From: Staphylococcus phage S-CoN_Ph34 | DNA: 25,977 nucleotides | Strand: one strand, 5' to 3' | Sequence record: OR354857.1 | Shown here: piece after piece, positions 1-24,780 of the stretch | Layout: each line of letters starts with the position of its first letter | Numbering within the stretch: the first letter of the stretch is position 1 | Translations under genes and position numbers: made by a program | The notes under the pieces: model-generated | What the model was told of the DNA's origin: nothing | The model's input: the letters and a program-made list of their open reading frames with translations, nothing else | The model's database searches: none

Positions 1-4
1 ACTT

Positions 5-27
5 CACCCCACCCCCACCCAGAAACG
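5..27. repeat. Terminal C-rich motif (CCCCACCCCCACCCAGAAAC), inverted copy near right end; candidate ITR/replication origin
   Basis: Revcomp of 25931-25957 (CGACCCCCACCACCGACCCAGATAC) matches about 16/20 positions. Both lie within ~50 nt of the window ends, as expected for a protein-primed linear genome. Confidence 0.5.
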
Positions 28-145
28 AGAACAGAATTTGAGCACGTAGCGACAAAAATTTTGAGTGAAAGGTCAAACAAAATACATTTAAAAATATGTA
101 ATGGATTATTGATAAAAAGTTTTTCAAAAAAGTTTGCTAAAACTA

Positions 146-174
146 TTGCAAAAAATTCGCACTTATTATATAAT
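146..174 (+). promoter_or_regulatory. Early sigma-A-type promoter (TTGCAA-17 nt-TATAAT) reading inward from left terminus
   Basis: -35 TTGCAA at 146-151, 17-nt spacer, -10 TATAAT at 169-174. Conserved counterpart TTGCAA-17-TATATT in right arm at 25832-25860. Confidence 0.55.
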
Positions 175-204
175 GTAATCAAGTTAGAAATGGAGGTGAG
201 AAAA

Positions 205-477
205 GTGACACCAGAAAAAGGTCAAGCCTATACGGAAATGTTACAACTGTTTAATTTATTACAACAATGGAATGATTTTTACACATCAGAAAATGCAAGT
301 AATTTATTAGTTGCATGTCAACAATTATTAATTAATTACAATGACCCAGTCATTAAATTTATTAATGATGAAAATGAAGATAAATCACTACTAAGCTATT
401 TAGCAGGTGATGACGGATTATCACAATGGCAATTTTACAAAGGTTTTTATAATAATTACAACGTTCATATTTTTTAA
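205..477 (+). CDS. Hypothetical early protein (~90 aa); GTG start after GGAGGTG, alternative ATG at 190
   Basis: ORF 61-477 tail. Right-arm paralogue 25530-25802 aligns from VTPEKGQAYTEM / VSEEKAQGYTEM. SD GGAGGTG 192-198. Confidence 0.6.
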   Translation: MTPEKGQAYTEMLQLFNLLQQWNDFYTSENASNLLVACQQLLINYNDPVIKFINDENEDKSLLSYLAGDDGLSQWQFYKGFYNNYNVHIF

Positions 478-524
478 AATAACATTTAATACTATATTCT
501 AAAAATATAATGTGAGGTGAACAT

Positions 525-740
525 ATGAACTACATTGATGTTGAAATCAAAGGTTTTACAGTCTATGCAAAAAATGATAGACATGAAGAATATGACTTTT
601 TTATTCCAAAACAAGATTACAGAATAACTAAACGTGAAATATTACAACATATTCCAGAAGGACATACATTACTAGATAGCAAACGTACGTCAAAAATAAT
701 TACAGTAAGTTATGATGAATTATTAAAAATTGAAATTTAA
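525..740 (+). CDS. Hypothetical early protein (71 aa)
   Basis: ORF with SD GAGGTGA 6 nt upstream of ATG. Paralogue 25299-25514 (~70% identity). Confidence 0.65.
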   Translation: MNYIDVEIKGFTVYAKNDRHEEYDFFIPKQDYRITKREILQHIPEGHTLLDSKRTSKIITVSYDELLKIEI

Positions 741-754
741 AGGAGTTAATAAAA

Positions 755-1195
755 ATGGCAAATGTAAATGAATTATTAAACAAATATTCTAACGGTGGCG
801 CAAAATTTGAATACGACAATGAAAAAGAAAGAGAATATATCAAATTAGGTGAATTGGATATGTCAAAAACATACCCTATTGAAGCGTTATTCATCAATAC
901 GAAAGGTAAATTTGGTGACCAAGGTGTCATCATTAGTGGTGACTACATTGTCAACTTACCTAATCACTTAACAGAAATGATTGAAGAAATGCGACAAGAT
1001 AGTGAAATGGTTGACGCAATCAATCAACGTTTATTTGATTTTGAAATTTATGAATTTGAATCTAAGAAATATAATCGTGTATCACATAGTATTAATTTAG
1101 TACCAAGTGAAAAAGCAAAACAAGAGGTTGAACCTGAGCAACGTAACCCGTTATATAGTGAGCCTGAACCTGAATCTGAAAAAAGTAGTATATGA
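755..1195 (+). CDS. Putative single-stranded DNA-binding protein (acidic C-terminal region); annotated stop probably not the biological C-terminus
   Basis: SD AAAGGAG upstream. Paralogue 24878-25282. +1 frame downstream encodes the canonical SSB C-terminal tip ..PIDISDEDLPF*. Confidence 0.5.
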   Translation: MANVNELLNKYSNGGAKFEYDNEKEREYIKLGELDMSKTYPIEALFINTKGKFGDQGVIISGDYIVNLPNHLTEMIEEMRQDSEMVDAINQRLFDFEIYEFESKKYNRVSHSINLVPSEKAKQEVEPEQRNPLYSEPEPESEKSSI

Positions 1196-1262
1196 GCGAC
1201 GTAACCCGTTCGCTCGTTCTACTAAACCAATTGATATTAGTGATGAAGATTTACCATTTTAA
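1179..1262 (+). other. +1-frame extension encoding SSB-type acidic C-terminal tip (ERRNPFARSTKPIDISDEDLPF*), reached through A6 run at 1179-1184
   Basis: Read directly in the +1 frame. Same arrangement in right arm (A7 run, ..GPIEITDDDLPF*). DDD(I/L)PF is the conserved bacterial SSB C-terminal tip. Confidence 0.55.
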
Positions 1263-1275
1263 TAAAAACTGAATA

Positions 1276-1300
1276 AAGGGGGCAATGCCTCCTTTTTTAT
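1276..1300 (+). terminator. Rho-independent terminator after SSB gene
   Basis: GGGGG-caatg-CCTCC hairpin followed by TTTTTT. Counterpart hairpin GAGGGG-ttttat-CCCCTC on - strand at 24781-24806. Confidence 0.5.
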
Positions 1301-1315
1301 TATGGAGTGATAAAA

Positions 1316-1525
1316 ATGTTAGCGTTTGAAAAAAGTATTATTGATGTATTAGAAAAAGCCTATGCTATGAATAAAGGATTTGTTGTGCTTTGTCAAAGAA
1401 GTAAAAAATATTTAAGTCGTACACTAAAATTTCTTGATGATATTAAATGTGAGTATATAACAATTACTGATAAAGACGGTACTATTAATATTGTGATTGA
1501 TGTTAATTCTTATAAAGGGGTTTAG
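1316..1525 (+). CDS. Hypothetical protein (69 aa), left-arm specific
   Basis: ORF with GGAG 8 nt upstream of ATG 1316. No paralogue at the equivalent right-arm position. Confidence 0.5.
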   Translation: MLAFEKSIIDVLEKAYAMNKGFVVLCQRSKKYLSRTLKFLDDIKCEYITITDKDGTINIVIDVNSYKGV

Positions 1526-1528
1526 TTT

Positions 1529-1774
1529 ATGTTTGGTACAATTGTTACAATAGGATTATGTTTATATGGTATAATTGCATTAATACTTGTTTCAATCGTT
1601 AATTATAAAAGGAGCGATTACATGAATTTGATTAAAGCGTATTATAATATTGTTAATGCACTCAATGATTACGATTTAACAAAAGAACAAAGAGATAAAT
1701 TAGAAAATGCTTTATTTGAAATTACGCATATTCTTAATGATTTAGAAAGTGAGGGAAAATATTTTGATAATTAA
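1529..1774 (+). CDS. Small membrane protein (N-terminal TM helix + helical C-terminal domain); possible phi29 p16.7-like membrane anchor
   Basis: MFGTIVTIGLCLYGIIALILVSIV hydrophobic segment. Right-arm paralogue is frameshifted (24524-24764). Confidence 0.5.
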   Translation: MFGTIVTIGLCLYGIIALILVSIVNYKRSDYMNLIKAYYNIVNALNDYDLTKEQRDKLENALFEITHILNDLESEGKYFDN

Positions 1775-2294
1775 ACATCAAATGAAATTACATTTAAATG
1801 AATTGGTTGATTGGGCGTGGCGTAATGGTGTAACATCTGAAAAGTTTCACTCAAATAATGGTTCATATGTGATATTTGACCATAGTGCAGTAGTAGAAAC
1901 CTATATTATAAACAAAAATGATTTATTTAATGTTATAGAAGAAATTGAAATCACATTAAATACACCGATTGACTATTTCCTAGAGAAAGATATGTACGGA
2001 AATTATCGTGAACATCAAAATATTGCTATTAAGGATTTATTATTTTTAAATACAACATCAGATATTTGGTTAATTAATGATGATGATTCACATATATTGA
2101 TTTATAAAGACGGACAACTCATTGATGAATATATGTATCATCAATTTGAATATGAAGCTAATCAGAATAAGCATATTTACCCACATAATAAAGCGAGTGG
2201 AACGTACCCACATAAAACAGAACAAGACGTCACACCACCAAAAAACAACCTGATACAAAACCCCTACCACCTGAAGAACATACACCAAAAGTGA
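1749..2294 (+). CDS. N-terminal fragment of two-domain SGNH-hydrolase protein (frame-disrupted around 2215-2245)
   Basis: Collinear with N-terminal half of intact 411-aa right-arm ORF 23314-24549. Downstream part continues in the -1 frame (..TTKKQPDTKPLPPEEHTPKVRTIKTLNGTVM). Confidence 0.6.
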   Translation: MRENILIIKHQMKLHLNELVDWAWRNGVTSEKFHSNNGSYVIFDHSAVVETYIINKNDLFNVIEEIEITLNTPIDYFLEKDMYGNYREHQNIAIKDLLFLNTTSDIWLINDDDSHILIYKDGQLIDEYMYHQFEYEANQNKHIYPHNKASGTYPHKTEQDVTPPKNNLIQNPYHLKNIHQK

Positions 2295-2992
2295 GAACCA
2301 TTAAAACATTAAATGGTACAGTAATGAAAGATTATACACCCGTTTCATCAATACAATATGTTAAATCTGTCGGAATCATTGGTGACAGTGTTGGTAAAGG
2401 TTCTCATGCTTCATATAACTTTGGTGATTATATCAATGAAAAAACAGGTGCAAAAATTCAAAACTTATCAGTAAGCAGTGCTACAATGAGTGAAGTTAAA
2501 GACAATAATATATTAAATCAAGCTAAACAACTTAAAGATAATGAATTAGTGATTATACAGGGTACTGATGATGATTGGTTGTTTAATTCAAATGCAGGTA
2601 TTGAAGTAGGTAATAAACTTACAGATACAAAAACTTATATCGGTGCATTTTATAAGGTTGTAGAAACGGTTAAAGAAAATAACCCAAAAGCTAAAATCGT
2701 TGTGATTACACCAACGAAACAAGCAAAAATTGATGATACAGGAAAAGTTATAAGACGTGATACAGACAAGAATAAAAAAGGTTACACATTAAAAACTTAT
2801 GTTGATTCACAAGTGAAAGCAACTAAAGATTTAGGATTAGCATTATATAATGCTTATGATGATTCATTAATTAATCCTTATGATGAAAAATTTAGACAAT
2901 CGTCTATGAAAGACGGTTTACACCCAACAAAATGGGGTCATGAAATGATGTATTATCGCATTGCAGAAACATATCATAAAAATTTTGATTGA
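2291..2992 (+). CDS. C-terminal fragment: SGNH/GDSL-family hydrolase (esterase) domain
   Basis: GDS block (IIGDSVGKGSHAS), GTDDDW (GxND-like) and DGLHPTKWGH (DGxHP catalytic block). Paralogue is the C-terminal half of 23314-24549. Confidence 0.6.
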   Translation: MRTIKTLNGTVMKDYTPVSSIQYVKSVGIIGDSVGKGSHASYNFGDYINEKTGAKIQNLSVSSATMSEVKDNNILNQAKQLKDNELVIIQGTDDDWLFNSNAGIEVGNKLTDTKTYIGAFYKVVETVKENNPKAKIVVITPTKQAKIDDTGKVIRRDTDKNKKGYTLKTYVDSQVKATKDLGLALYNAYDDSLINPYDEKFRQSSMKDGLHPTKWGHEMMYYRIAETYHKNFD

Positions 2993-3002
2993 GGTGTAGA
3001 CA

Positions 3003-3515
3003 ATGAAAAGAGGTAACAAAAGTAATCGCATTGCACGTTCAAATGCTTTTCGTGAAGCAACAACAAAAAAACAATCAACCTATGAACGTGACGGATTTGT
3101 TTTTTTATTTGATGATGAAGAATTACAAAAAGAATACATTCATGAATATAATCATTTTAACAATCTATTTGTTGAAAAAGGTAAAGTTAAACTACCTAAA
3201 CCAAAAAAGATTGCTTATATTGACGCTAAAAGTTTAGTGAGTGGTAAAAACCAAGAAAAGTTAACAGAAATAGAAAATGTCTATAAACAACTTGATTATG
3301 ATTGGGAACAAAAAGGTAATATGCACAAACGCCATTTATTCCAAGAAGCAGTTAAAGACAATGACGGTTCACAAGAAATATCACACTTTATTAAATCAAC
3401 TCAAGAACTATTTAAAGAACTTGAAGAAGCTACAAAAGTAGATAGTATTGTAAATAAAAACAAGTCAAATACAACGTTGTTTATTATGTCAGACGGGTGG
3501 GTTAACTATGTTTGA
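3003..3515 (+). CDS. Hypothetical basic 170-aa protein immediately upstream of packaging ATPase (function unknown; terminal-protein candidacy is speculation only)
   Basis: ORF; paralogue 22820-23311. Confidence 0.55.
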   Translation: MKRGNKSNRIARSNAFREATTKKQSTYERDGFVFLFDDEELQKEYIHEYNHFNNLFVEKGKVKLPKPKKIAYIDAKSLVSGKNQEKLTEIENVYKQLDYDWEQKGNMHKRHLFQEAVKDNDGSQEISHFIKSTQELFKELEEATKVDSIVNKNKSNTTLFIMSDGWVNYV

Positions 3516-3563
3516 AACTGTTGATGATATTATTGAATATTATTCAGATAAGGAGGTTAAAAA

Positions 3564-4448
3564 ATGAAAAAGTCACGATTAAATGAAGTGAAAGACTATC
3601 AAAATTTTGTTAATAAGTTTAGACGTTCAATTCCAAAACAATATAATCAAATTGAACTTGCAGATGATTTGATGAATTTAGATATTGATTTTTTAATTTC
3701 CATATCCAACCGTTCAGACGGTAAAACATTCAACTATGTTGCATTTTTTATGAAGTTAGCTATTGATTTAGATATTAAGTTTACTTTACTCGCAAGACAT
3801 CATACATTGCGTGACGCTTATCGTGAATTACTTGAAAGAATATGTATTGAACAAAAACATTTTAATGATAAAGATTTATTTTTTAGAAATACGCAAGATT
3901 ATATTGCAGTTGGTTATGGTGATAAAGAAATTGGTATTATTACTCACCTTAATAATGCAACCGATTTAAAATATCATTCTAACTTTATGAAGAATTTTCC
4001 TATCATTATTTATGATGAGTTTTTAGCATTAGAAAGTGACTATCTCATAGATGAGTGGGAAAAGTTGAAAACCATATATGAAAGTATTGACCGTAACCAT
4101 GGTAATATTGAATATATCAAAATACCAAAAATTGTATTACTAGGAAATGCCGTAAACTTTTCAAGTCCACTACTCGCAAACTTAAATATTTATGAACAAT
4201 TACAACATCACTCAAAATTTGGTATGAATAGCAAACGTCAGTATAGTAATATCATGCTTGAGATGAGAAGAAATGAATTTTCTAATGAGAATCGTAACAC
4301 ACGTGCATTTAATACTGATGATGATTCTATGACAACAGGTGAATTTGATTTTAATACATTCAATTTAGCAGACGATTATTTGAGGGCGCACATATCAAGT
4401 AATGGTAACTTTTTCCATATCAAAACCCCTATAATTATATTAAAGTGA
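3564..4448 (+). CDS. DNA encapsidation ATPase (phi29 gp16-like), N-terminal fragment; 1-nt frame disruption near 4431
   Basis: Walker A-like SNRSDGKT and Walker B IIIYDEF. SD AAGGAGG. Intact paralogue 21503-22762 (419 aa). Confidence 0.8.
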   Translation: MKKSRLNEVKDYQNFVNKFRRSIPKQYNQIELADDLMNLDIDFLISISNRSDGKTFNYVAFFMKLAIDLDIKFTLLARHHTLRDAYRELLERICIEQKHFNDKDLFFRNTQDYIAVGYGDKEIGIITHLNNATDLKYHSNFMKNFPIIIYDEFLALESDYLIDEWEKLKTIYESIDRNHGNIEYIKIPKIVLLGNAVNFSSPLLANLNIYEQLQHHSKFGMNSKRQYSNIMLEMRRNEFSNENRNTRAFNTDDDSMTTGEFDFNTFNLADDYLRAHISSNGNFFHIKTPIIILK

Positions 4449-4795
4449 TGTATAACTTAAATGATTATCAAACCAATATTAAAGTTGTGCCCTATTCTGA
4501 TGATTATCATTTTTGCACTGATGTATCAGATGTTGAACATGGTGCATTATTTTTAAAAGAATCATTTTATAAAGATAATCATCAAAGGCGTTATTATAAC
4601 CCCTCAAATCTTCATTTTGATAATGCATACAGTAAATCATTTATACTCAATGAGGACGATTTTATTCATTTAAACATGAACAAGATTATAAAGTATCATT
4701 TAAAAACAGAACGTAACAAAAAAGGGTATCAACCTTTTGAACAAAAAGAAAAAATGTATCATGATAACTACATTGAAAGAACTAAAAAAATCTAG
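4445..4795 (+). CDS. DNA encapsidation ATPase, C-terminal fragment
   Basis: Collinear with C-terminus of 21503-22762. Restoring one nt at CCTAT^AATT gives ..KTPMNYIKVMYNLNDYQ, matching the paralogue. Confidence 0.75.
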   Translation: MMYNLNDYQTNIKVVPYSDDYHFCTDVSDVEHGALFLKESFYKDNHQRRYYNPSNLHFDNAYSKSFILNEDDFIHLNMNKIIKYHLKTERNKKGYQPFEQKEKMYHDNYIERTKKI

Positions 4796-4808
4796 TAAAA
4801 TCATTTAT

Positions 4809-4845
4809 AAGCAATGTGTAAAGTTTTTACATATTGCTTTTTTTA
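4809..4845 (+). terminator. Rho-independent terminator after ATPase gene
   Basis: 13-bp stem AAGCAATGTGTAA / TTACATATTGCTT (1 mismatch), loop AGTTTT, then T7. Confidence 0.5.
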
Positions 4846-4854
4846 TGATATAAT
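4826..4854 (+). promoter_or_regulatory. Putative extended -10 promoter (TGaTATAAT) for DNA polymerase gene
   Basis: TGATATAAT at 4846-4854, 25 nt upstream of pol ATG. TATAAT also present upstream of right-arm pol'. Confidence 0.35.
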
Positions 4855-4878
4855 GTTTTTTGATTAGAGGTGTAGAAC

Positions 4879-5478
4879 ATGGGATTATTAGAAGCAATGC
4901 AAAAACATAAAGGTCAAAAAAATTTATATCTTTATTGGGATATTGAAACATTAAACTATAATAAGGTAGCAGGAAGAGAAAAACCAACTAAATATAAAAA
5001 TGTTACTTATAGTCTTGCTATTGGTTGGTATGATGGAAAACACATTGATGTTGAAGTATTTCCAAGTTTTAAATCCTTTTATCAATCTTTTTTTGATTAC
5101 GCCTCAAGACGTGATACGATTACGAAATCACAAACTACCATTAATATGATTGCACATAACTGTAATAAATACGATAATCATTTTTTACTTCACGATACAA
5201 AATATTATTTTGGTGATGATTTAGTGATAGAAAATTTATTTATGAAAAGTGCAGAAGATAACGAAAATACAATTAATATGAATGAAGCAAAATTATTATC
5301 AAAAGAAACAAATGTGATTTTAGAAAAACGTGTTAAATCAAGTATTAATTTAGATTTAATAATGTATTTGAAAGGATTTAAGTTTAATATCATTGATAAT
5401 TTTATGAAAACCAATACATCAATAGCAACACTAGGAAAAAACTCAAAGACGGTGGGTATATTAGTGAAGATGAATTAA
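4879..5478 (+). CDS. Protein-primed family-B DNA polymerase, N-terminal (exonuclease) fragment; frame lost in A6 run 5436-5441
   Basis: Exo I YWDIETLN, Exo II HNCNKYDNHF. SD AGAGGTG. Right paralogue has A7 at the same place and is intact (761 aa). Confidence 0.9.
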   Translation: MGLLEAMQKHKGQKNLYLYWDIETLNYNKVAGREKPTKYKNVTYSLAIGWYDGKHIDVEVFPSFKSFYQSFFDYASRRDTITKSQTTINMIAHNCNKYDNHFLLHDTKYYFGDDLVIENLFMKSAEDNENTINMNEAKLLSKETNVILEKRVKSSINLDLIMYLKGFKFNIIDNFMKTNTSIATLGKNSKTVGILVKMN

Positions 5479-5498
5479 AAACTGATTTTCAATATGAT

Positions 5499-7172
5499 GT
5501 GTTTGATGTTGAACATGATATGACAGATAAACAAGCGTATGCTTATGCTTATGAATGTTTTCATCAACTTACAGAATCACAAATGACCTATATTAGAAAC
5601 GATGTCATCATATTAGGTATGTGCCACATACATTATAGTGATATATTCCCTAATTTTGATTATAGTGCAATGACCTTTAGTGTAAATATTATGAAAAGTT
5701 ATATCAATAATGAAACAACACGATTACAATTATTAAACCAAAAAGGAAAGCAAAAAATATCATACACAGATTTTACTTTTTTTGATATGAATTTTTATGA
5801 CTTTATTAAGGGTTTCTATCGTGGTGGATTAAATATGTATAATTCACGTTATGTTGATAAAATCATCAATGAGGAATGTTTTTCAATAGACATTAATAGT
5901 AGTTATCCCTATGTGATGTATCATGAAAAATTACCAATGTATATTTATGATTTTGGTGAATATGAACAACCGACAACGATACACATTGATTTAACTAATA
6001 AAGATTATTTTTCCCTTTATAAAATGGATAAAGTCACATTCAATCGTACTATTTTAAGAAATATTGAAAGTGATTTAATTAAACAATGTCTTGTTAAATA
6101 CTACAATAATGATAAAAAGTTTGTTAACATAAATACAAACACTTTACGCATGATTCAAGATTTAACGGGTTTAACTTTTGATAAAATAAATGTGTTTGCT
6201 TTTGTATGCTATGAATGTGAATACTTTGGCGCTCGTGATATTATTCATCATAATTATTTTATTAAAACACAGGGTAAATTAAATAAAAAAATCATTATGG
6301 ATTCACCCTATAACTATAAAATTACTGATGAAGTGAATACACATACCTATTCACAAGAAGAAATTATGTTAAGTAAAGTTGTTTTAAATGGTCTGTATGG
6401 TATACCTGCTTTACGGTCACATTTTAATTTGTTTAGACGTGATGAGGACGGTTTTTTAGTTAACCATGAAAATGGATATAAAAACAGTGAACGCAATTTG
6501 TTGTTTTCAACTTTTGTTACATCACAAGCACTTTATAACTTACTTGAACCCCTAAAGTCTCTAACACAATCTGAAATTGATGAATGTTTTATTTATTGTG
6601 ATACAGACAGTTTATATTTGAAATCAAAAATTAAACATAAAATCAATGATGAATTATTTGACCCAATCGCATTAGGTAAGTGGGACATTGAAAATCACGT
6701 TATTAAAAAAATGTATGTACTCAATCATAAAAAGTACGCCTACCAAAAAGAAGATAATACAATTAAAATAGCAAGTGCAGGTATTCCATTAGACGCATTT
6801 AATAAAAATCAATCTTTTGAAGAATTTATAAAGAATGATTTTCACCATAAAGCAATTGTGTATAACAATAAATCCATTTATAACGAACAAAAAACAATAT
6901 CTATTTACCCGTCAAAAACATATATTGAAAAAGGTACACCTTATGATTATTATTTCACTAAAGAATTAGAGGATAGAAAAGAAGATGTATTAAAACAAGC
7001 AAGACGTGAATATGATGATGTTAATGACGATGATATATTATACATTGAGAGTGAAGTCGGCGCATTTTCATTTAGTGACTTATTTCCTTATCAATTTGAA
7101 ATTAAAAATAAATGTGATATTAACATTTTATATATGGTTCATCAAGACATAAAAAATGACGCTACATTATAG
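5499..7172 (+). CDS. Protein-primed family-B DNA polymerase, C-terminal (polymerisation) fragment
   Basis: Exo III YIRNDVIIL, motif A DINSSYPYVM, motif B KVVLNGLYG, motif C YCDTDSLY, KxY KKYAY. Confidence 0.95.
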   Translation: MFDVEHDMTDKQAYAYAYECFHQLTESQMTYIRNDVIILGMCHIHYSDIFPNFDYSAMTFSVNIMKSYINNETTRLQLLNQKGKQKISYTDFTFFDMNFYDFIKGFYRGGLNMYNSRYVDKIINEECFSIDINSSYPYVMYHEKLPMYIYDFGEYEQPTTIHIDLTNKDYFSLYKMDKVTFNRTILRNIESDLIKQCLVKYYNNDKKFVNINTNTLRMIQDLTGLTFDKINVFAFVCYECEYFGARDIIHHNYFIKTQGKLNKKIIMDSPYNYKITDEVNTHTYSQEEIMLSKVVLNGLYGIPALRSHFNLFRRDEDGFLVNHENGYKNSERNLLFSTFVTSQALYNLLEPLKSLTQSEIDECFIYCDTDSLYLKSKIKHKINDELFDPIALGKWDIENHVIKKMYVLNHKKYAYQKEDNTIKIASAGIPLDAFNKNQSFEEFIKNDFHHKAIVYNNKSIYNEQKTISIYPSKTYIEKGTPYDYYFTKELEDRKEDVLKQARREYDDVNDDDILYIESEVGAFSFSDLFPYQFEIKNKCDINILYMVHQDIKNDATL

Positions 7173-7186
7173 TAGCGTCTTTTTTT
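7158..7186. terminator. Bidirectional terminator between convergent pol and lysis genes
   Basis: Perfect 8-bp stem GACGCTAC/GTAGCGTC flanked by A6 and T7. Pol stop codon lies inside the structure. Confidence 0.6.
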
Positions 7187-7281
7187 ACGAGGTATAGTGA
7201 CAAGTGACGTTTGCCATACGGATTATGTTTTGTTGTTTATTTACTAGAATGTTCTAGCATACTTATATTATAGCATAATTT

Positions 7282-7919
7282 TTACTTAATGCCACTAAAA
7301 AACATAATATTATCCCCTGCATTTTCAGGTACACCGTCAATCAATGTATATTCAACAACACGACTAGGTGCCCAATAAGGTGGTACGTTATAATTGGCTA
7401 CTAAAAATGAACCGTCTTTGAAAACTGCTACTACAACACCTGTATGTCCTACACCCGGTAATGAGGCTTGTAAATAAGGAGGTTTACTACTGAATCCATA
7501 GCCAACTGTTGGTCGGTGTGTGACACGTGCACCACGATTACGATAAACCACCCACACACGTTGACCATTTGTAACTTGACCGTCGTCGGCAGGTTGAACT
7601 TTTCCATGTAATTGTGTCATATAACACTGTGTCAATTCTGTACATTGACCTGTATTACCAAAACGTGGGAATGTATTCCCACTATTATTTAGATAACTAG
7701 GTTTAAATAGTGGCACGTCAATAGCGTCTTTATATTTTTGTGGTAATTGAGAATAAGTCCAGTTACCACCAATTACACGACCATTTTTTCCGTTTGGTGC
7801 AACTGATTTACCCCTTTATCTGCGCCACCCTCACTATCATCAGCACCTGTATCTTTTCCACCACCCCCGTCGATTCTTGATATTAAGTCTTTCATTTCAT
7901 CAAGTAATTTTTGATTCAT
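7282..7919 (-). CDS. CHAP-domain peptidoglycan peptidase (frame-disrupted at C4 run 7811-7814)
   Basis: Catalytic Cys (FGNTGQCTELTQ) and His (GVGHTGVVVA). N-terminal part MNQKLLDEMKDL..GGGGKDTGADD in ORF 7773-7964. Adding one G restores ..DKGGKSVAPNGKNGRVIGGNW.. matching right copy. Confidence 0.7.
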
Positions 7920-7921
7920 AT

Positions 7922-8701
7922 TTAAACGATAGGTGTTATTGTATGTTTTTGTAATGGTAAACATCTGATTAGAAAAAATTTATCAGTACCAATAGAGTGC
8001 AAATCCCACTGCATACTGTCTTGTAATTTTTTAAGAAATTCCTCAAAGGCACGTGCAACAACATCAAGCCCACCACTAGAGCCACTAGAACTACTTGAAC
8101 CACTACTTGAACCTCCTTTTCCGTCTATTTTACCACCCCACGCGAGTATGGTGTTTGAAGCGTCTAAGAATGGATTTCCATAAGTTTGTACCCTATTATA
8201 ACTAGCTTGTAACCCCTCAGGATAATAAGCAGCCCAAGTTGCTGCAGCTGTTAATGGAATATAGGCACGACCGACTTTTCCATTTTTCATATTATGAGAA
8301 AAATCATAATTTCCTTTTGCTTTTACACTTGCAGGCACAAAGTCTACGGGATTTCCTGCGTCAATCCACGAGGGTGTACCTGCTTGACGAGATTGAGAAA
8401 CAAGTTTACGTGCAACAAATTGTGCGTCTGATAAATAATTACCCTGTGGTGTTGTATGGTTAAGCCAACCCCAACTACCATTATAGCCCTCATTTTTTTC
8501 ATAAGCACTAAATAATGCAGGTGATACCCCTATGCTTTTAACTGCATTGAGAACCTGCCTAATTTTACCTGAATCATTTCCACACCATGCTTGAAATCGT
8601 CCTATGCCTTTGACTTTAGGTACTAAATCATCAACACTTAATCCAAAATCATCATTTAAGTTAGAATGTATAAACTTGTCAATTTTTTCTTTATCATTCA
8701 T
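7922..8701 (-). CDS. Putative cell-wall hydrolase (annotated amidase-like) with Gly/Ser-rich linker; C-terminal 16 aa probably not the real terminus
   Basis: Lies between holin and CHAP gene. GGSSSGSSSSSGSSGG linker. Paralogue 17655-18425. Functional class is inferred from context, not from a recognised motif. Confidence 0.45.
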   Translation of the reverse strand: MNDKEKIDKFIHSNLNDDFGLSVDDLVPKVKGIGRFQAWCGNDSGKIRQVLNAVKSIGVSPALFSAYEKNEGYNGSWGWLNHTTPQGNYLSDAQFVARKLVSQSRQAGTPSWIDAGNPVDFVPASVKAKGNYDFSHNMKNGKVGRAYIPLTAAATWAAYYPEGLQASYNRVQTYGNPFLDASNTILAWGGKIDGKGGSSSGSSSSSGSSGGLDVVARAFEEFLKKLQDSMQWDLHSIGTDKFFLIRCLPLQKHTITPIV

Positions 8702-9116
8702 CTTTATCTACTTCTTTCATCGGTTTATTGTCACGACTACGAATGACTTTTAATTTTTCACCTATTTCTTCGGGAATCAGAACCCCCATTTCTGCACAGT
8801 TTTCAACAATAGATAATCCCTCATTCGCTATATAGAAAAAGATTGTTACCATTAATAAACCATTGTTTAGATTTAATATTTGGTCAATGATATTTGCTAA
8901 AATGATAATACAGAAAATGAGTATTTTACGACCAAATCCATACATGCTTTTTCTACTCCATAAATTTTTATTTTTAAAGGCTTTAGCTAAACCTGTAATA
9001 ATATCAATTAACATTAATACCATTAAAAAATACAGTAATTTTATATCACCTGCATATATAAATGTGTGAAAAGCGTCAGTTTGTGTATATTGTACGTGTA
9101 ATTCACCTTTTTCCAT
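8694..9116 (-). CDS. Holin (two TM segments, charged C-terminus)
   Basis: Hydrophobic segments LLYFLMVLMLIDIITGL and ILIFCIIILANIIDQIL, acidic/basic C-terminal tail. Immediately upstream of lysin genes. Confidence 0.65.
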   Translation of the reverse strand: MEKGELHVQYTQTDAFHTFIYAGDIKLLYFLMVLMLIDIITGLAKAFKNKNLWSRKSMYGFGRKILIFCIIILANIIDQILNLNNGLLMVTIFFYIANEGLSIVENCAEMGVLIPEEIGEKLKVIRSRDNKPMKEVDKDE

Positions 9117-9125
9117 TTTTTAAAC

Positions 9126-9470
9126 CTACTTTCTAAATTTATTTTTAAATACATTTTGTGCCATTGGATTGTTTGTTCCGTCGTTATGCCAAAATCTGAC
9201 ACCCGTTTCAAGTAATACTTTTAACTGTTCTAAAAGCATAGGGTCGATACCGTCAATAGTATATGTACCTCTCATTCTTAAATAATTGCATACCGTCCAT
9301 GAATCAATTGGGAATGGTGTTCCTGCTTGGTCATTAGTTTCAAAACCTAACATGAAATAATAACGTTTAATATTATCCATGTCGAAGGGCGCTGGTACAC
9401 CAATTTTCATGGTTAATCCATTAATACTATTTGCGATTTGGAACGCATTTCCCATTTGTGAACTTGTCAC
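9126..9470 (-). CDS. Tail knob protein (phi29 gp9-like), C-terminal fragment
   Basis: Adding one C in C4 run (G4 on + strand, 9475-9478) fuses it to 9467-10270 as ..LQPPTVTSSQMGNAF.. Confidence 0.65.
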   Translation of the reverse strand: MTSSQMGNAFQIANSINGLTMKIGVPAPFDMDNIKRYYFMLGFETNDQAGTPFPIDSWTVCNYLRMRGTYTIDGIDPMLLEQLKVLLETGVRFWHNDGTNNPMAQNVFKNKFRK

Positions 9471-10270
9471 AGTAGGGGTTGTAATGCTAAGTCTTTATAT
9501 TCTGCACGTAATTCTTTATAGTAATTATACTCATCATTAAATTTTGAAAATAAAGCCGTTGGTGAAAGGTTTGACCCAATGCTTACAGCGTCATAAAATC
9601 TTGATTTCAAATCATTACCACCCACAACATTATTGATTCTGCTAGATATTAAATTACTTTGTGCATTTTTTTGTTTGTTGGCTTGTTGAGATTGTGCAAG
9701 TAATCCATTATCAATTAAAATAGGTACTTCTGCAAAACTATCAAACGTGATAGCCGTATTTAAAAATGAACCTGTATCAATCAATATTGAATTATCACTT
9801 GCTTGTATTGGTTTTTCATTGGGTGCGCTATTATAGTCAACGGGATAAATACGTACCTCATTATGATAACCAATAATAGATTTTGTTCTTAACTTAACCC
9901 CTGTTTTTTCTGTTATTTTTCCTGCGTCAAGTAATAAACTGTCACCATTCCATGAATATATTTCAATCGTTAAATATTCATTTCTCACTAAATGTTTTAA
10001 TTCATCTTGATTAGCATTAATCATATATTGTAATCTTTCAAAAGGTACACGTAATTCTTTTAATTCCCATTCATTCGATAACTTTTCATTTTTTAGTGTC
10101 ATTAAACCTTTAATATCTTCTTGTGTTTTGACTGCTTCTAAATCATCAATATTAATAAATGTAGCAGGTATTAAAATAATTTTTTGAAAGTTTTGCGTAA
10201 TCCATGGATATTTACTCATTTTATCCATAAATTCGTTAAAGTCTTTACGATTCATCACATACAGATTCAC
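9467..10270 (-). CDS. Tail knob protein (phi29 gp9-like), central fragment
   Basis: Contiguous with flanking fragments. The three ORFs sum to 588 aa (phi29 gp9 about 600 aa). Confidence 0.65.
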   Translation of the reverse strand: MNLYVMNRKDFNEFMDKMSKYPWITQNFQKIILIPATFINIDDLEAVKTQEDIKGLMTLKNEKLSNEWELKELRVPFERLQYMINANQDELKHLVRNEYLTIEIYSWNGDSLLLDAGKITEKTGVKLRTKSIIGYHNEVRIYPVDYNSAPNEKPIQASDNSILIDTGSFLNTAITFDSFAEVPILIDNGLLAQSQQANKQKNAQSNLISSRINNVVGGNDLKSRFYDAVSIGSNLSPTALFSKFNDEYNYYKELRAEYKDLALQPLL

Positions 10271-10890
10271 TGGACTTGTAATGTAATCGTAAGTAATCCC
10301 TTTGATGATTCTAGGTTAGGCTCTTTTTTCGTACCAAACTTTTTAGATAAATCAGCACTTGATTGGAATAAAACAAGATTACCACCAAACTGTTCAAGAT
10401 AATTATTTAAATAGTATTTGTTACTTGCTTTAATAACATCATCGTTATTTCTAAGTGAGGGTAATAAATAATTGTAAACCTCACGTGGTAAATGTTGTCG
10501 TTCAATAAACGCATTTTGTACATTTGATAATACATTACCCTGTGTGTAAGTCATCACTGTATCAATCACTAAATACATTCGTGTAACATGGTCGTTGACA
10601 TACTCAATTTGATTCACAAACGCATAATAACGTCTATTTTCAAAATCAGATTTAAACGTACAATAATTAATCCCCTGTGCGTCTTGCCATGACATTTGTT
10701 CAAGATTCACCATGTTTCTATCACGTATAAAATTAAACGGAATATTTTTATAATCAATAGCATTAAAATGATTTTCATTTAAAAAATAGTTGTCACGTTC
10801 ATTGTTTGATGAAAAGTGAATTGTGTTTTGATAATCTGTCAGTGGTGTATTATAGAAAAATTTAAAATGTGTCAGTTTTCTATCTGCCAT
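10267..10890 (-). CDS. Tail knob protein (phi29 gp9-like), N-terminal fragment
   Basis: TDYQNTIHFSSNNERDNYF and RRYYAFVNQIEYVNDHVTRMYLVIDTVMTY resemble the phi29 gp9 N-terminus (NDYKNTRWF..., KWFYAFVTELEF...). Strong SD AGGAGG. Confidence 0.75.
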   Translation of the reverse strand: MADRKLTHFKFFYNTPLTDYQNTIHFSSNNERDNYFLNENHFNAIDYKNIPFNFIRDRNMVNLEQMSWQDAQGINYCTFKSDFENRRYYAFVNQIEYVNDHVTRMYLVIDTVMTYTQGNVLSNVQNAFIERQHLPREVYNYLLPSLRNNDDVIKASNKYYLNNYLEQFGGNLVLFQSSADLSKKFGTKKEPNLESSKGLLTITLQVQ

Positions 10891-10908
10891 AAAATAACCT
10901 CCTTATAT

Positions 10909-10938
10909 GTAAAAATAGACACGCTTTCACGTGTCTAT
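10909..10938 (-). terminator. Rho-independent terminator (- strand) between coiled-coil gene and tail knob
   Basis: 9-bp stem ATAGACACG/CGTGTCTAT, loop TGAAAG, then T5 on - strand. Confidence 0.5.
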
Positions 10939-10949
10939 TATATCATAAT

Positions 10950-11753
10950 TTAATCCATAAATACGGTATTAATTGGACACCACTCATCGCCTGTTGGACT
11001 AGGGTAGGTTGTTCCCTCAATAACAACATCACCTGCACGCATCACAGTCATTCTTGTGTAGTAAATTGAACCTGATTTTTTACTTGTATTTTGAACATAG
11101 TAATGTGGATTTGTGAACTGACCATTGATAGGTATTTTTCCTACTGTAATAGATTCACCTTTATACCCTTTTACTGCACCACGTAAAGCAACTGTTTTAA
11201 TGCCTTTTACGTTAGTAATTCGATATTGTGGTGGGTCGGTATGTGGTATTAACCCACTACCTGTGATTTTGATATTTTGCCAACCTGTATCTTCAATAGT
11301 AATACCATTGATTTTTTCCGTATTCGATTGAATTTTTTTATTTGTTTCTTCTATCTTTTCGTCTATCTTTTCGTTTAACGTTTTTTGTTCTTGTTTCAAT
11401 TCGTCGATATTAATGGAATCAATTTTTTGCTTCATTTCTTCTAAGTTGTAACTATTAAATTTTTCAGTAATTTCATTCACTTTTAATTTGTTATCTTCGA
11501 CAGATGTTTCAATGACTTTGATTTTTTCTTCATTATCATAAATACGTTTTTCATTGTCTGATAATTTTTCTTGTACTTCTTGCATTTCATCTTGTAGTGG
11601 TTCGATACTTTCTAAATGAAGAAATCCGTTTTTAGTGTAAATATAAACATCACCGTCAACGGTTGAACATATGTCATTTTCGTCAAGAAGATTTGTATTA
11701 AAATTTTGTAGGTTATAAATATCTTTGACACTTCTTACAAATTTACTTGCCAT
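10950..11753 (-). CDS. Structural protein with central coiled coil and globular C-terminal domain (tail spike/fibre-associated?)
   Basis: Heptad-like, E/K-rich central region. SD GGAGG. Confidence 0.45.
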   Translation of the reverse strand: MASKFVRSVKDIYNLQNFNTNLLDENDICSTVDGDVYIYTKNGFLHLESIEPLQDEMQEVQEKLSDNEKRIYDNEEKIKVIETSVEDNKLKVNEITEKFNSYNLEEMKQKIDSINIDELKQEQKTLNEKIDEKIEETNKKIQSNTEKINGITIEDTGWQNIKITGSGLIPHTDPPQYRITNVKGIKTVALRGAVKGYKGESITVGKIPINGQFTNPHYYVQNTSKKSGSIYYTRMTVMRAGDVVIEGTTYPSPTGDEWCPINTVFMD

Positions 11754-11758
11754 GTTTT

Positions 11759-12496
11759 TTAAACCTCCAATTTACCCCAAAGATGTTTTTCATTGAGTAT
11801 TTTTTCTTGTTTATCTTCAATTTTACCAATTGACATATAAAAACGGTTTTTACTAGCACCTTTTTGTTGATAGTAAAACCCTAACCACCAAAAACCATCT
11901 TTTTTATAAATTCTATCAAACTTAACGTATTGATTAGGATAAATCCAAGAATTTTTATCAACAATTTCACCTTTTAATGATGGTTCTAATCTCACACGAA
12001 TTGGACGTTTATTAGTTTTAAATGATGTAAATTTACCATTCCATTTATAAACGTTTTTGGGTTTGCTTTCTTTTCTAAAATGTGGACGAATAAAGTGTGT
12101 AACTCCGTCATAATAATGAACACGTTGTGTTGCTAATTCTTGATAGCTTCCACCTAAACCATTCCAATTTTGTTCAAGACATAAATAATAATTTAAATTA
12201 CCACTAATGACAATTTGAATATGACCGTATTCACTATATGCACCCTCAGTATAGACTGCAATATCACCAAATTGTGGTTTAAAATCACGTGTATTACGAT
12301 AAACCGTTGCTAAACCTTTCATATCATTTTTAATTGCGTCTTTTGCATTACCCCATAATCTTACTTGACCGTCTGTAATGTAATACATGTAATCAACTGC
12401 TAAATCAGCACATTGATAACCAAAACTACCGTCAAAATCAACGCCTACACCTGTATGTGTTTGAATATAGTGTCTAGCTTGCGACAATGTTTTCAT
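11759..12496 (-). CDS. Endolysin, CHAP peptidase + SH3b-like cell-wall-binding domain (P68 Lys16-like)
   Basis: CHAP Cys (GYQCADLAVDYMYY) and His (EYGHIQIV). C-terminal W/Y/K-rich ~90 aa. SD AGGAGG. Confidence 0.7.
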   Translation of the reverse strand: MKTLSQARHYIQTHTGVGVDFDGSFGYQCADLAVDYMYYITDGQVRLWGNAKDAIKNDMKGLATVYRNTRDFKPQFGDIAVYTEGAYSEYGHIQIVISGNLNYYLCLEQNWNGLGGSYQELATQRVHYYDGVTHFIRPHFRKESKPKNVYKWNGKFTSFKTNKRPIRVRLEPSLKGEIVDKNSWIYPNQYVKFDRIYKKDGFWWLGFYYQQKGASKNRFYMSIGKIEDKQEKILNEKHLWGKLEV

Positions 12497-12532
12497 TTTT
12501 GTTTCCTCCTTTAAATTAGGATAGGCAAACGC

Positions 12533-14362
12533 CTACCCTAGAATAATCAACCCTTTACTTGATAATGTTTGAGGGTCAACATTGGTAGAATATCCATGGT
12601 CTTTATCTGTAAATATCCTACTACCATTATACACGTTATAAACTGTTTTGTTACTAGATATGTTAGAACCAAAACAAGTAATTTCACCACCACGTGTTGC
12701 ATAAACGGGTTCATTTTTAGTACCACTAATATTTGACGCTTCGGCGAACACTTTAGACGCATAAGCTAAAATACCAAAGTCACCACTACCTGTGATTGTG
12801 ATTCTATCTGCAAATATTTGACCACCACGTGTGGCTTCAATCCCGTTACGACCTGCACGTTCAATCACTGCTTCATTAATAGAAATGACTGAACCATAAG
12901 CCAATACGTTATCATCTTTTGAACGTGAAACCTTTGCCCCGTACGCTGCGACATAACCACCACGTGTAGCTTCTAATCCACGACGACCATTTCCATCACA
13001 ATTAATCAATTGGCAATAAACATCACCTGCATAGGCAAGTACACCATTTCTTTTATTACCATTGGTTGTTGATAATCTTGCTTGAACTGTTGAACCATGT
13101 GTACATTGGATTCCGTCAAGTCCGTTTTCATTCGCATTACCACTTGTGAAATCCACTTTTGAGTTATTACTTGCTATGACACCATGCCATTTATTACGTG
13201 AAGCAGTTGCCCCTGTGGCGTCAATAGAACAACCCCTGTTTGCCATAATTCCACTTGCACCACAACCATTAGCAATGCCTTTATCAAAGTTAATGTTTGA
13301 TGAACGTGTCGCAATGACACCGTATGTTGTTTGTGAATTTGAACAATCACTACTTCTTAAATCAATATCACTTGACGCATAACTTACAACATTATCATCA
13401 ATTGTATCAGTGATTTTACAGTTTCTTGCACTCGCTTGTGAACCAGTTGTCACCATTAAACCATGGTGTCCGTTAAATCTTGCTTCGGTAAAATCAATAT
13501 AACCACTTGCACCATGTGAGAAGTGTATTCCAATTTCACCACAACGATTGACTGTCATATAATTACCTGTTAATGATGAATTAAAAATTCTTAATCCGTC
13601 ACCATACATATTTTGGTCTTTATTATATTCTTCTAATTGTTCACGATTACCATTGTACGAAAAATCACAATAGTTGGTTTGAATATGTGAACCATTGACA
13701 CCACATAAGCCAATAAAATTAAAGTGTGTAGAACCTCCACGTTCAGTCATTTCAAACGTTGTATTATCCATTAAGAAACCACAGTTAATACTATCTGAAA
13801 AATCTTTGTTTTGAAGTTTAAAATCAATTTTAGGGAATGTTGAATTAATTCCATAAAATAATGGTTTTACTCTAAAAATTGGATTTGTTTTTATTTCAAC
13901 TTGACGATTTAATTCAGTTTCATAGGCTTCAACAATATCATTTTCTGATGTAATCGTAATATGATTATAACGTTTATCACGTAAGAATAATTGTTCTCGC
14001 ATCATGTAATCTTTAAGTAAAATGACACGTATAGATTTTGGTTGAACAATTAAATTTTCAATGTAATCAAAACAATGATTCAATGTGTAAAAATCACCTT
14101 TTTGTCCTACTGTATATGTGACATCTGTATTTGATAACGTTAAAGCGTCGTATGTTTCTTTCATTTTTTGTATGTCATCTGCTAGTCCATTAACAAAATC
14201 ACATAATTCAAAAATAAAACCATTAAAACGTGCTAAGTAATCATAATATGATTTTGAATTGGTATTATAATCTGCATTATCACTGTAAAATGGTTCACGA
14301 TATATGCCACGACGATAACCATATTCATTATTATAGTTGATTCTACCGTTATTTATATACAT
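12533..14362 (-). CDS. Tail fibre / appendage protein with right-handed beta-helix repeats
   Basis: Repeated ..ATRGG.. / G-x-x-A-x-x-S turns in the C-terminal 350 aa (GLEATRGGYVAAYGAKVS, GIEATRGGQIFADRITI, VYATRGGEITCFGSNIS). SD GGAGG. Confidence 0.6.
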   Translation of the reverse strand: MYINNGRINYNNEYGYRRGIYREPFYSDNADYNTNSKSYYDYLARFNGFIFELCDFVNGLADDIQKMKETYDALTLSNTDVTYTVGQKGDFYTLNHCFDYIENLIVQPKSIRVILLKDYMMREQLFLRDKRYNHITITSENDIVEAYETELNRQVEIKTNPIFRVKPLFYGINSTFPKIDFKLQNKDFSDSINCGFLMDNTTFEMTERGGSTHFNFIGLCGVNGSHIQTNYCDFSYNGNREQLEEYNKDQNMYGDGLRIFNSSLTGNYMTVNRCGEIGIHFSHGASGYIDFTEARFNGHHGLMVTTGSQASARNCKITDTIDDNVVSYASSDIDLRSSDCSNSQTTYGVIATRSSNINFDKGIANGCGASGIMANRGCSIDATGATASRNKWHGVIASNNSKVDFTSGNANENGLDGIQCTHGSTVQARLSTTNGNKRNGVLAYAGDVYCQLINCDGNGRRGLEATRGGYVAAYGAKVSRSKDDNVLAYGSVISINEAVIERAGRNGIEATRGGQIFADRITITGSGDFGILAYASKVFAEASNISGTKNEPVYATRGGEITCFGSNISSNKTVYNVYNGSRIFTDKDHGYSTNVDPQTLSSKGLIILG

Positions 14363-14373
14363 ATTTTATCCTC

Positions 14374-15225
14374 CTACCATATGTGTAAAAAACATTCTTT
14401 ATCATATGTTTTAAATATTGTATCACGCATTGAATATAACTTTTGTAAGTTATCTATTAAGTATTGTTTTGTTAATCCTGTTCGTTTCATTTCATTTTGT
14501 GATTGTGTATTACGTTTTGTATCACTTTCACCGTTTCTTAATGAATCAAACGTATTATCTTTTGTACCTGTTTTTTCTGATACTGTTTCACTTGTATTTT
14601 TATCACGTGAAATCGTATTTGTGTCTGCATAATCAAGCACTGTATTATCTACATCAATATTTACTTGTGATTGTGGTAATGTAGATTCTGCAGTCCTATT
14701 ATCGTCAAAACTTTTTGTGATGGTATCTTCATAGTCTTTGTATTCTTCATGACCTTTGTCTTGTTGTCTGTCTTTGGTTTGACCTTGCTCGATTGCGTTT
14801 TCAATCGCTTTACCTAAGTCTTGTGATTGTGTATCTGTAACTTGTTCAATATATTTATACATATCTGAACCATAAACACGATAAATGTAATCTTCATGTG
14901 TCATTGTGATATACAAAACTTGACTTGCAAAGGCTTCAACCGTTTGTCTACCAATTTCACGATATAAAAAACGCAATGTAAAACTTTCTTTAAAATATCG
15001 GTCAATCCGTTCATCATTAAACATGAAACCTTTAAAAAAGATATTATCGACAATTTGTTTAACATCATCATCAAAATACAACATCTTTTGCATAAACGCA
15101 TGTTTTGAATCATTAAAGTGGATTCTATCATTATTAACAAATTCATTTAATCCCAAACGTTGTAATTCACTTTCAATAATTTCATATAACGTTGTTGTGT
15201 GTTTACTCAACTTTTCCACCACCAA
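14374..15225 (-). CDS. Putative lower collar protein (gp11-like by synteny); start uncertain (TTG/GTG)
   Basis: Lies between portal and fibre. Polar/acidic C-terminal region. Confidence 0.4.
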   Translation of the reverse strand: MVVEKLSKHTTTLYEIIESELQRLGLNEFVNNDRIHFNDSKHAFMQKMLYFDDDVKQIVDNIFFKGFMFNDERIDRYFKESFTLRFLYREIGRQTVEAFASQVLYITMTHEDYIYRVYGSDMYKYIEQVTDTQSQDLGKAIENAIEQGQTKDRQQDKGHEEYKDYEDTITKSFDDNRTAESTLPQSQVNIDVDNTVLDYADTNTISRDKNTSETVSEKTGTKDNTFDSLRNGESDTKRNTQSQNEMKRTGLTKQYLIDNLQKLYSMRDTIFKTYDKECFLHIW

Positions 15226-16210
15226 AATTATCAGTCTTTAAATTCATAATATCCATTTCAGAAATTGCCTCATCATCATAGTAAGGGTGAATATCTAAAT
15301 TAAAACGACGATTTAACATTTCAAAAGGGTTTCTACCTCTTAAATAAATATTACTATTTGATGTAGTAAATGAACGATTGGATTTAGCTTCCGTATCACT
15401 CACACCACTTTCTTTATCAACTGCAAGTGAGTTGACACCTAAGAAATTACTTAACTCACTGACTTTATTTTGATATTCTCGTTTCATTTCAACTAAAGCA
15501 GTAGTTACAAAATCACTACCCAAGTCAATAATATCTTCTTCAGGGTCAATGTATTTATCTGTCTTAATAAAAGGTGCACCATTATACAATTTATTAATAA
15601 AATGATTAATCGTTTCATCTTGAATATCAGATAAAAATATTTTACTAAATTTAGACTGCATAATAAGTGAAAAGCGAGATAATATAATTTCAGCTAATTC
15701 ATCACAATAATGTTCGATAATCTGATAATCATTATTTAAATTAACGGGTTTATTTCGTAATACAACAAAATCACCACTTTGGCAATTATCATAATATTCA
15801 ATTTCTAAAGCATAATCTGGTCTTAAATAATCAGGAATAATAAATGTGATGTCATCTTGAGTTAATCGTCTGTTAAAAGTTAAATTGAAGTTATTTATAA
15901 AATCGTTACTATTTTTATAATACATTGATTGGATATAGCCTAATATCATAATGACACCATTTCTAGCTTTACCAACTACAACTTGATAACCTTGTCTTAA
16001 TGCAATTTCAAGTTGTAAAAAATCAATACCAACTGAATTTTGATTTGTATAATTGATAAGCAATGGTAAAAATTCAACGTAACGATTAAAAATTAACCGA
16101 CGAAAACGGTTTCTATGTTCCATTATTCGTCGGTCAATATCTTCAGTCAATTCAACTTTTAAACCAACATCTTTATTTTTTCCGATGTAATCGTTATCCA
16201 AATAACTCAT
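15203..16210 (-). CDS. Putative portal / upper collar protein (gp10-like by synteny and size)
   Basis: 335 aa. SD AGGAGG. Sits between MCP and lower collar as in P68-like genomes. Confidence 0.45.
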   Translation of the reverse strand: MSYLDNDYIGKNKDVGLKVELTEDIDRRIMEHRNRFRRLIFNRYVEFLPLLINYTNQNSVGIDFLQLEIALRQGYQVVVGKARNGVIMILGYIQSMYYKNSNDFINNFNLTFNRRLTQDDITFIIPDYLRPDYALEIEYYDNCQSGDFVVLRNKPVNLNNDYQIIEHYCDELAEIILSRFSLIMQSKFSKIFLSDIQDETINHFINKLYNGAPFIKTDKYIDPEEDIIDLGSDFVTTALVEMKREYQNKVSELSNFLGVNSLAVDKESGVSDTEAKSNRSFTTSNSNIYLRGRNPFEMLNRRFNLDIHPYYDDEAISEMDIMNLKTDNFGGGKVE

Positions 16211-16230
16211 GGTTTAAAAGTCCTCCTTTA

Positions 16231-18425: not shown

Positions 18426-18427
18426 AT

Positions 18428-24764: not shown

Positions 24765-24780
24765 ATATAGACCTCCTCAT

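Follow-up and report, generated by a model that had tools for sequence, protein, structure and literature searches.

The tail lysin locus in the stretch of DNA analysed here (25,977 nucleotides filed as Staphylococcus phage S-CoN_Ph34, OR354857.1, and referred to below, at its full length, as the window) raises the question of whether a virion-borne cell-wall hydrolase can be encoded in overlapping reading frames that are joined by slippage on a run of six T residues, or whether the overlap and the run were introduced when the sequence was determined. The locus occurs twice, in two regions that had been described as inverted arms: at 7282-8701 on the minus strand (arm 1) and at 17655-19059 on the plus strand (arm 2). 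A first-pass annotation, made from the sequence letters, had proposed that an "amidase" gene overlaps the start of a CHAP gene in each arm, and that a -1 slip on U6, or a true T7, would unite the two in a single lysin. We put the probability at about 95% that both copies are one gene, and that neither the overlap nor the U6 "slip site" is real, both arising from a T7 that was undercalled as T6 in a nanopore-only assembly.

As written, the minus strand of arm 1 at 7282-8701 contains three successive ORFs, with a -1 shift from each to the next. The first of them, the "amidase" (7922-8701, minus strand, with 259 aa in the ORF list), comprises an N-terminal GyH domain, a Gly/Ser linker and the first helix of a linker domain, and then runs into a spurious 16-aa tail, LIRCLPLQKHTITPIV. 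The name given to this fragment could not be upheld, as a Pfam search with it returned no match and it carries no amidase signature; the domain is homologous to the GyH domain of P68 Orf11 and Andhra gp10, for which "amidase" is a legacy label. The second fragment (7773-7964, minus strand, 63 aa in the ORF list, starting with MFTITK) begins at the ATG at 7964-7962, which opens MFTITKTYNNTYRLNMN in the -1 frame, and the upstream ORF stops 43 nt beyond that ATG. What it encodes is not CHAP but part of the linker domain, namely the beta-sheet and second helix, and its residues are identical to residues about 246-290 of Andhra gp10. The C-terminal CHAP domain itself is found in the third fragment, at 7282-7810 on the minus strand and in the third reading frame (Pfam CHAP PF05257, E 1.3e-7); the CHAP ORF in the list for this arm is 7282-7716 (minus strand, 144 aa).

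Arm 2 has the same three-frame layout on the plus strand (17637/17655-18425, then 18383-18541 with 52 aa, then 18649-19059), with the end of its upstream ORF at 18425 and its ATG at 18383. The Pfam search detected no domain in the MFTITK ORF of either arm (63 aa and 52 aa). The first two ORFs overlap by 43 nt, and AAATTTTTTC sits directly upstream of the overlap. The T6 run reported for both arms, in the context GAUAAAUUUUUUCUAAUCAG, is present as text at 7973-7978 on the minus strand in arm 1 (A6 on the plus strand, T6 on the gene strand) and at 18369-18374 on the plus strand in arm 2, and we read it in both as an undercalled T7. The statement that the CHAP frame opens within the last 16 codons of the amidase therefore stands for the 43-nt overlap as text but fails for the identity of the frame, since the MFTITK ORF is not CHAP and closes after 63 or 52 aa, with CHAP in the third frame.

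The two arms had been treated as parts of one system, but they belong to two different phage genomes. Over positions 3-17409 the window matches Staphylococcus phage S-CoN_Ph33 (OR354856) at 99.8% identity, and positions 17410 to about 24092 are 99.9% identical, in inverted orientation, to S-CoN_Ph36 (OR354859), beyond the end of which record the window extends; the arm 2 gene copy is likewise 99.9% identical to OR354859. At the chimeric junction, 17409-17410, the S-CoN_Ph33-like genome (3-17409) meets the inverted S-CoN_Ph36-like segment (17410 onward). The "inverted arms", which are ~80% identical to each other, are orthologous regions of two Andhravirus genomes that have been abruptly joined, and not a feature of one element.

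Comparison of the two orthologous copies identifies the frame that has been under selection. From the T-run to the stop of the upstream frame, the arms differ at five positions. Four of these differences lie within the overlap, where all are third-position changes, synonymous in the MFTITK (-1) frame, and all are second-position, non-synonymous changes in the upstream frame. The fifth, TCT/TCA, is located between the T-run and the ATG and is again synonymous only in the -1 frame. The claim that the downstream frame is the selected one is thus confirmed, with 5/5 differences synonymous there and non-synonymous in the upstream frame. Because the TCT/TCA difference, upstream of the ATG, follows the same pattern, the -1 frame is under purifying selection from the T-run onward, not from the ATG.

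Among the relatives of these phages the run has seven T residues. T7 was found in 9/9 independently sequenced isolates (St 134, Andhra, BESEP3, PSU3, SeAlphi, V1SC05, Pike, JBug18 and DSP1), in 14/14 IMG/VR contigs and in 12/12 metagenome contigs. T6 occurs only in both window copies and in eight of the eight S-CoN_Ph GenBank records examined (Ph28-33, 35 and 36), i.e., in 10/10 ONT-only copies and in 0/35 independent sequences. A scan of public contigs for the exact T6 pattern, undertaken as an attempt to refute the artefact reading, returned no matches in IMG/VR and the JGI/ENA metagenome contigs, versus 14 and 12 for the T7 pattern.

The reading frame is continuous in these relatives. The 22 non-ONT genes that were aligned (from 8 isolates and 14 IMG/VR contigs) are, without exception, intact ORFs of 470-473 codons, and 11 further complete metagenome copies are also intact, so that a single ORF of 470-477 codons is present in 33/33 complete copies. 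None of the ten ONT-derived copies is intact: their first stops come at codons 16, 90, 144, 162, 162, 171, 179, 257, 259 and 260, and each of them carries extra private indels. In the window the gene is split by two one-base gaps per copy, while all 33 complete non-ONT relatives are continuous. The comparison with picovirus relatives, in which the two parts might have been fused or separate, gave one fused ORF in every complete copy. The suggestion that a true T7 would join the two ORFs describes the relatives, in which the run is T7 and the frame runs on.

The arm 1 gene is 97.3% identical in nucleotide sequence to that of phage St 134, from which it is separated by 44 substitutions and just two gaps, of one base each (T6 vs T7 and G4 vs G5). 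Both St 134 and Andhra have one uninterrupted ORF of 1422 nt in the homologous region, annotated as "tail tip lysin (spike)" in St 134 and as gp10 in Andhra. With one T and one G restored, arm 1 encodes a 473-aa protein that is 99.6% identical to that of St 134 and 90% identical to Andhra gp10, and its residues 1-473 align to residues 1-473 of PDB 8EJ5_A with an E value of 3.8e-287. The stretch over the supposed junction, HSIGTDKFFSNQMFTITKTYNNTYRLNMNQKLLDEMKDLISRIDGG, is identical between the repaired arm 1 protein and 8EJ5_A, and the junction in the repaired, continuous frame reads ...GTDKFF-SNQMFTITK.... The N-terminal residues 1-200 match the GyH domain of P68 Orf11 (PDB 6O43, E 5.8e-98). 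The sole Pfam domain of the repaired protein is PF05257 CHAP, at residues 351-439, with SH3b absent, and its CHAP motifs GQCTELT (containing the catalytic Cys) and GHTGVV (His) align to C354 and H420 of Andhra gp10.

The repaired arm 2 protein, of 468 aa, is 74.5% identical to that of arm 1, and the closest intact relative of arm 2 is a metagenome contig (L056, VNIW01000391.1) with 93% nucleotide identity, a 472-codon ORF and T7. The gene is positioned directly downstream of the holin gene and is convergent with the DNA polymerase gene; a separate CHAP-SH3b endolysin is encoded at 11759-12496. To judge from its sequence, the gene would be one continuous and already characterised tail tip lysin of Staphylococcus epidermidis picoviruses (the Andhra gp10 family). 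The end-to-end match to Andhra gp10 (PDB 8EJ5) bears out the earlier prediction of a ~470-aa hydrolase-linker-CHAP lysin in addition to the CHAP-SH3b endolysin.

The S-CoN phages were sequenced with ONT MinION R9.4.1 only, using Guppy 4.5.4 and Flye (PMC11001980), and the platform for Andhra and St 134 was Illumina MiSeq at >130x coverage. The text of the S-CoN paper (PMC11001980) has no match for "polish" or "Medaka", and a search of it for remarks on frameshifts and for Ph33, Ph34 and Ph36 found none. In the Andhravirus tree the S-CoN phages are found on dispersed branches, with T7 phages from Russia, Switzerland, Korea, Israel, France and the USA as neighbours, and T6 therefore tracks the platform and not ancestry. 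The change from T7 to T6 in AAATTTTTTTC is common to all assemblies of the set, which means that agreement of related assemblies from the same platform is not independent confirmation.

Deletions of this type are not restricted to the lysin gene. All seven homopolymer length changes relative to St 134 in the left 17.4 kb of the window are -1 changes, with no gains. One-base deletions split the genes for the RBP-anchor hydrolase (2240, A7>A6), the packaging ATPase (4427) and the DNA polymerase (5442), and the tail knob gene is split in the same manner (9475, G5>G4; 10301), which accounts for the pieces of these genes in the ORF list. Arm 2 is otherwise clean, with intact ORFs for DNA polymerase, ATPase and hydrolase. 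Between the window and the GenBank record of S-CoN_Ph33, which is the same phage, there are 3 mismatches and 26 gap positions, and the two disagree on short runs, the record having G5 where the window has G4.

Homopolymers of seven are called correctly at 10 of 12 comparable sites in the left part of the window. A blanket collapse of all 7-mers was considered and is ruled out, since only 2/12 are short; the error is confined to particular sites, and this is the chief reservation about the artefact reading. Among the ten ONT copies, one has the A7 at gene position 203 wrong, and all ten have a short T7 at gene position 724. This uniformity is compatible with a context-dependent systematic basecalling error, and it is the one observation for which a real shared T6 would account as well. 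A context-dependent systematic error (T7 abutting AAA) explains the site-specificity.

We propose that the run would be T7 in the real phages, with a continuous reading frame, and that the nanopore-only consensus (R9.4.1, Guppy 4.5.4, Flye) loses one base at certain homopolymers. By this process T7 would have been called T6 in both copies, and one base would have been lost from a second run, of G residues, at differing positions in the two copies; together, the deletions would generate a fake stop, a fake internal start and a fake overlap. We infer that T6 is an undercall of T7 and would expect T7 in the reads.

The second frame break of arm 1, 165 nt downstream of the T6 site, is at 7811-7814 on the minus strand (C4 on the plus strand, G4 on the gene strand) and is read as an undercalled G5; St 134 and even the GenBank entry for this phage (S-CoN_Ph33) have G5 there. 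The second break of arm 2 is at another place, 18479-18483 on the plus strand, and is read as a G6 undercalled as G5: the window has ATTGACGGGGGAGTGGT where the 93%-identical contig L056 has ATTGACGGGGGGAGTGGT, and the gap aligns as GACGGGGG-AGTGG against GACGGGGGGAGTGG (G6) in that contig (VNIW01000391.1). Because each arm has such a second, non-homologous one-base deletion, a slip on U6 would still stop before CHAP; after a shift at T6 the frame closes 63 (arm 1) or 52 (arm 2) codons on, short of the CHAP domain.

These breaks bear on the proposal of the first-pass annotation that T6 is real and that programmed -1 ribosomal frameshifting, or transcriptional slippage on U6/T6, yields the full-length lysin. 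Both arms and all eight S-CoN records share T6, though most other 7-mers are correct, and selection past the run is clearly in the -1 frame, as slippage would have it. However, the upstream-frame codons, GAU AAA UUU UUU CUA, contain no in-register X XXY YYZ heptamer, A AAU UUU being out of register, and the 93 nt downstream have folding energies of -4.9 and -7.9 kcal/mol in the two arms, which is no more stable than dinucleotide shuffles (z scores of +0.47 and +0.27). T6 also goes with platform and not with phylogeny, arm 1 being 97.3% identical to the T7-bearing St 134; the T6 pattern has 0 matches, and the T7 pattern 26, in the public contig collections; and the two-frame arrangement is seen in none of the 35 independent sequences, which have T7, or the 33 complete copies, which have a single ORF. 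Given the lack of an in-register heptamer and of downstream structure, T7 in 35/35 relatives and a slipped frame that stops before CHAP, at second breaks that differ between the arms, a -1 slip on U6 is very improbable. We find it just as hard to credit that T6 might be genuine in the Staphylococcus picoviruses of human skin, with the lysin made or phase-varied by U6/T6 slippage into GyH-only and full-length products, or, in a weaker variant, that the native Andhravirus T7 might slip at a low level and give rise to a truncated GyH protein.

The deletions might also be real inactivating mutations, by which the tail-lysin genes of defective or mixed phage populations became pseudogenes, and the left part of the window does contain several broken genes. 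The phages were nevertheless isolated and propagated as plaque formers (PMC11001980), and a viable picovirus cannot have its DNA polymerase, packaging ATPase, tail knob and tail tip lysin all broken. Moreover, inactivation sits poorly with homopolymer length changes that are all -1 and with two assemblies of the same phage that differ on which runs are short, and we regard this explanation as most unlikely. That two or three genuine overlapping genes exist here, with independent initiation at the MFTITK ATG, can be almost entirely discounted: the ATG is present and GenBank S-CoN_Ph28 annotates overlapping CDSs at this locus, as do the S-CoN records, but there is no Shine-Dalgarno-like sequence within 20 nt upstream of the ATG (GATAAATTTTTTCTAATCAG), the Met is replaced by Tyr in the orthologue of the S. 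aureus sister genus Rosenblumvirus, which is one 479-aa ORF, synonymous-only change extends upstream of the ATG, and the break would interrupt a folded part of a protein of solved structure, namely its linker domain (residues 211-277).

Read as a single gene broken by undercalled homopolymers, the arm 1 copy (7282-8701) is an orthologue of St 134 AQT25384 and Andhra gp10 that was cast into three frames by two one-base deletions, and the arm 2 copy (17655-19059), also in three frames, belongs to the second, S-CoN_Ph36-like phage. Andhra gp10 (PDB 8EJ5; PMC9710869, PMC5362749) is 90% identical to the repaired arm 1 protein and colinear with it over residues 1-473, and the two share the order of GyH, helix-sheet-helix linker and CHAP, the catalytic Cys/His motifs and the synteny of an upstream holin and a convergent downstream DNA polymerase. 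Between them there is no biological difference; the text of the window is short of one T and one G, and this spreads the gene over three frames. Cryo-EM has placed gp10 at the tail tip as a dimer; the protein has a glycosyl-hydrolase domain at its N-terminus and CHAP at its C-terminus (PMC9710869). Its linker domain occupies residues 211-277; the linker helices join the tip to the knob, and the linker beta-sheet inserts into the gp12 knob (PMC9710869). This domain has the apparent junction (residue ~241) in its middle, and if the stop were real, CHAP would be separated from the virion. Recombinant gp10 can break down staphylococcal cell walls, an activity that is abolished by C354A/H420A (PMC5362749).

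Also among the closest known relatives is LysSte134_2 of St 134 (AQT25384; PMC10975630), with 99.6% protein and 97.3% nucleotide identity to arm 1 and with the two homopolymer deletions as the only gaps; unlike arm 1, the St 134 sequence (Illumina) has T7, G5 and a single 1422-nt ORF. More distantly, P68 gp11 (Orf11, PDB 6O43) has a homologous N-terminal GyH domain (E 5.8e-98), and in Rosenblumvirus, the sister genus formed by the S. aureus picoviruses, the "tail spike" of SA46-CTH2 is a single 479-aa ORF with 71% identity. The Rosenblumvirus sequence at the site of interest is KYFSNDYFTLEK, with neither the T-run nor the Met. PlyCA of the streptococcal phage C1 (PDB 4F88) is, like this lysin, a two-domain hydrolase with GyH and CHAP, and it has been cited as a structural homologue of P68 gp11 and Andhra gp10 (PMC9710869); unlike the tail tip lysin, it is the catalytic subunit of an endolysin holoenzyme. 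A sequence search with the repaired protein gave no match to PlyCA.

The product had also been likened to gp13 of phage phi29 as a virion-associated lysin. That protein, a cell-wall hydrolase carried by the virion at the tail tip of a phi29-like podovirus, consists of two domains joined by a linker, one of them lysozyme-like and the other an M23 peptidase, not GyH and CHAP. The comparison may be retained as one of function, since the product is the known tail tip lysin, and gp13 is a functional analogue, likened to it by function and architecture. The picture of a virion-borne hydrolase-linker-CHAP lysin is therefore correct, yet it was already established, and the locus is of little biological importance in itself, the underlying gene being that of a well-characterised virion lysin with a solved structure. 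Caution is called for with the S-CoN_Ph Andhravirus records (OR354851-OR354859), which, like the window, hold uncorrected nanopore homopolymer deletions; such deletions break up essential genes, and their effects can pass for overlapping genes and slip sites. The frame-specific substitution analysis with which the locus was first approached did find the true frame, and it is useful for spotting sequencing errors of this kind.

The window as a whole is a hard chimera of two Andhravirus genomes, joined at 17409-17410: positions 3-17409 match the record of phage S-CoN_Ph33, and the sequence from 17410 onward matches that of S-CoN_Ph36 in inverted orientation, with its right end (24093-25977) extending past the end of the GenBank Ph36 record. 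At the junction, one phage is cut inside its major capsid gene and the other in its holin region, and every large "inverted repeat" in the window is due to this joining of Ph33 to Ph36. Positions 4-124, which are a 100% match in inverted orientation to 18219-18099 at the opposite end of the S-CoN_Ph33 record, are a short inverted terminal repeat, as expected for a protein-primed, phi29-like genome.

Relative to phage St 134, the window carries additional one-base deletions at 2240, 3456, 4427, 4784, 5442, 9475, 10301 and 14364, most of them in homopolymers. Such deletions break the genes for the RBP-anchor hydrolase (1749-2294 and 2291-2992), the packaging ATPase (3564-4448 and 4445-4795), the DNA polymerase (4879-5478 and 5499-7172) and the tail knob (9126-9470, 9467-10270 and 10267-10890). 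Counterparts of the split genes are whole in the Ph36-like part, at 19174-21459, 21503-22813 and 23314-24549.

A second recurrent error hot spot of the S-CoN GenBank records, found in six of eight (our L001, L023-L026 and L032), lies at about nucleotides 454-473 of the tail tip lysin gene (CTGCAGCTGCAACTTGGGCTGC) and consists of indels and scrambled bases around a CTGCAG/CAGCTG-rich motif; the equivalent stretch of the window (about 8229-8248) is clean. This hot spot may reflect a motif- or modification-dependent nanopore error.

The endolysins of St 134 and Andhra are of the amidase type, whereas that of the window (11759-12496, minus strand; 245 aa) combines CHAP and SH3b_P2 domains. Together with the lack of any alignment to St 134 over about 11865-12490, within the endolysin stretch, this difference suggests that the endolysin cassette has been exchanged within Andhravirus. 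Inside the receptor-binding protein ORF (12533-14362, minus strand), at 12821-13144 (minus strand), lie ~33-nt direct repeats with a spacing of 135 nt, which probably represent a repeated structural motif.
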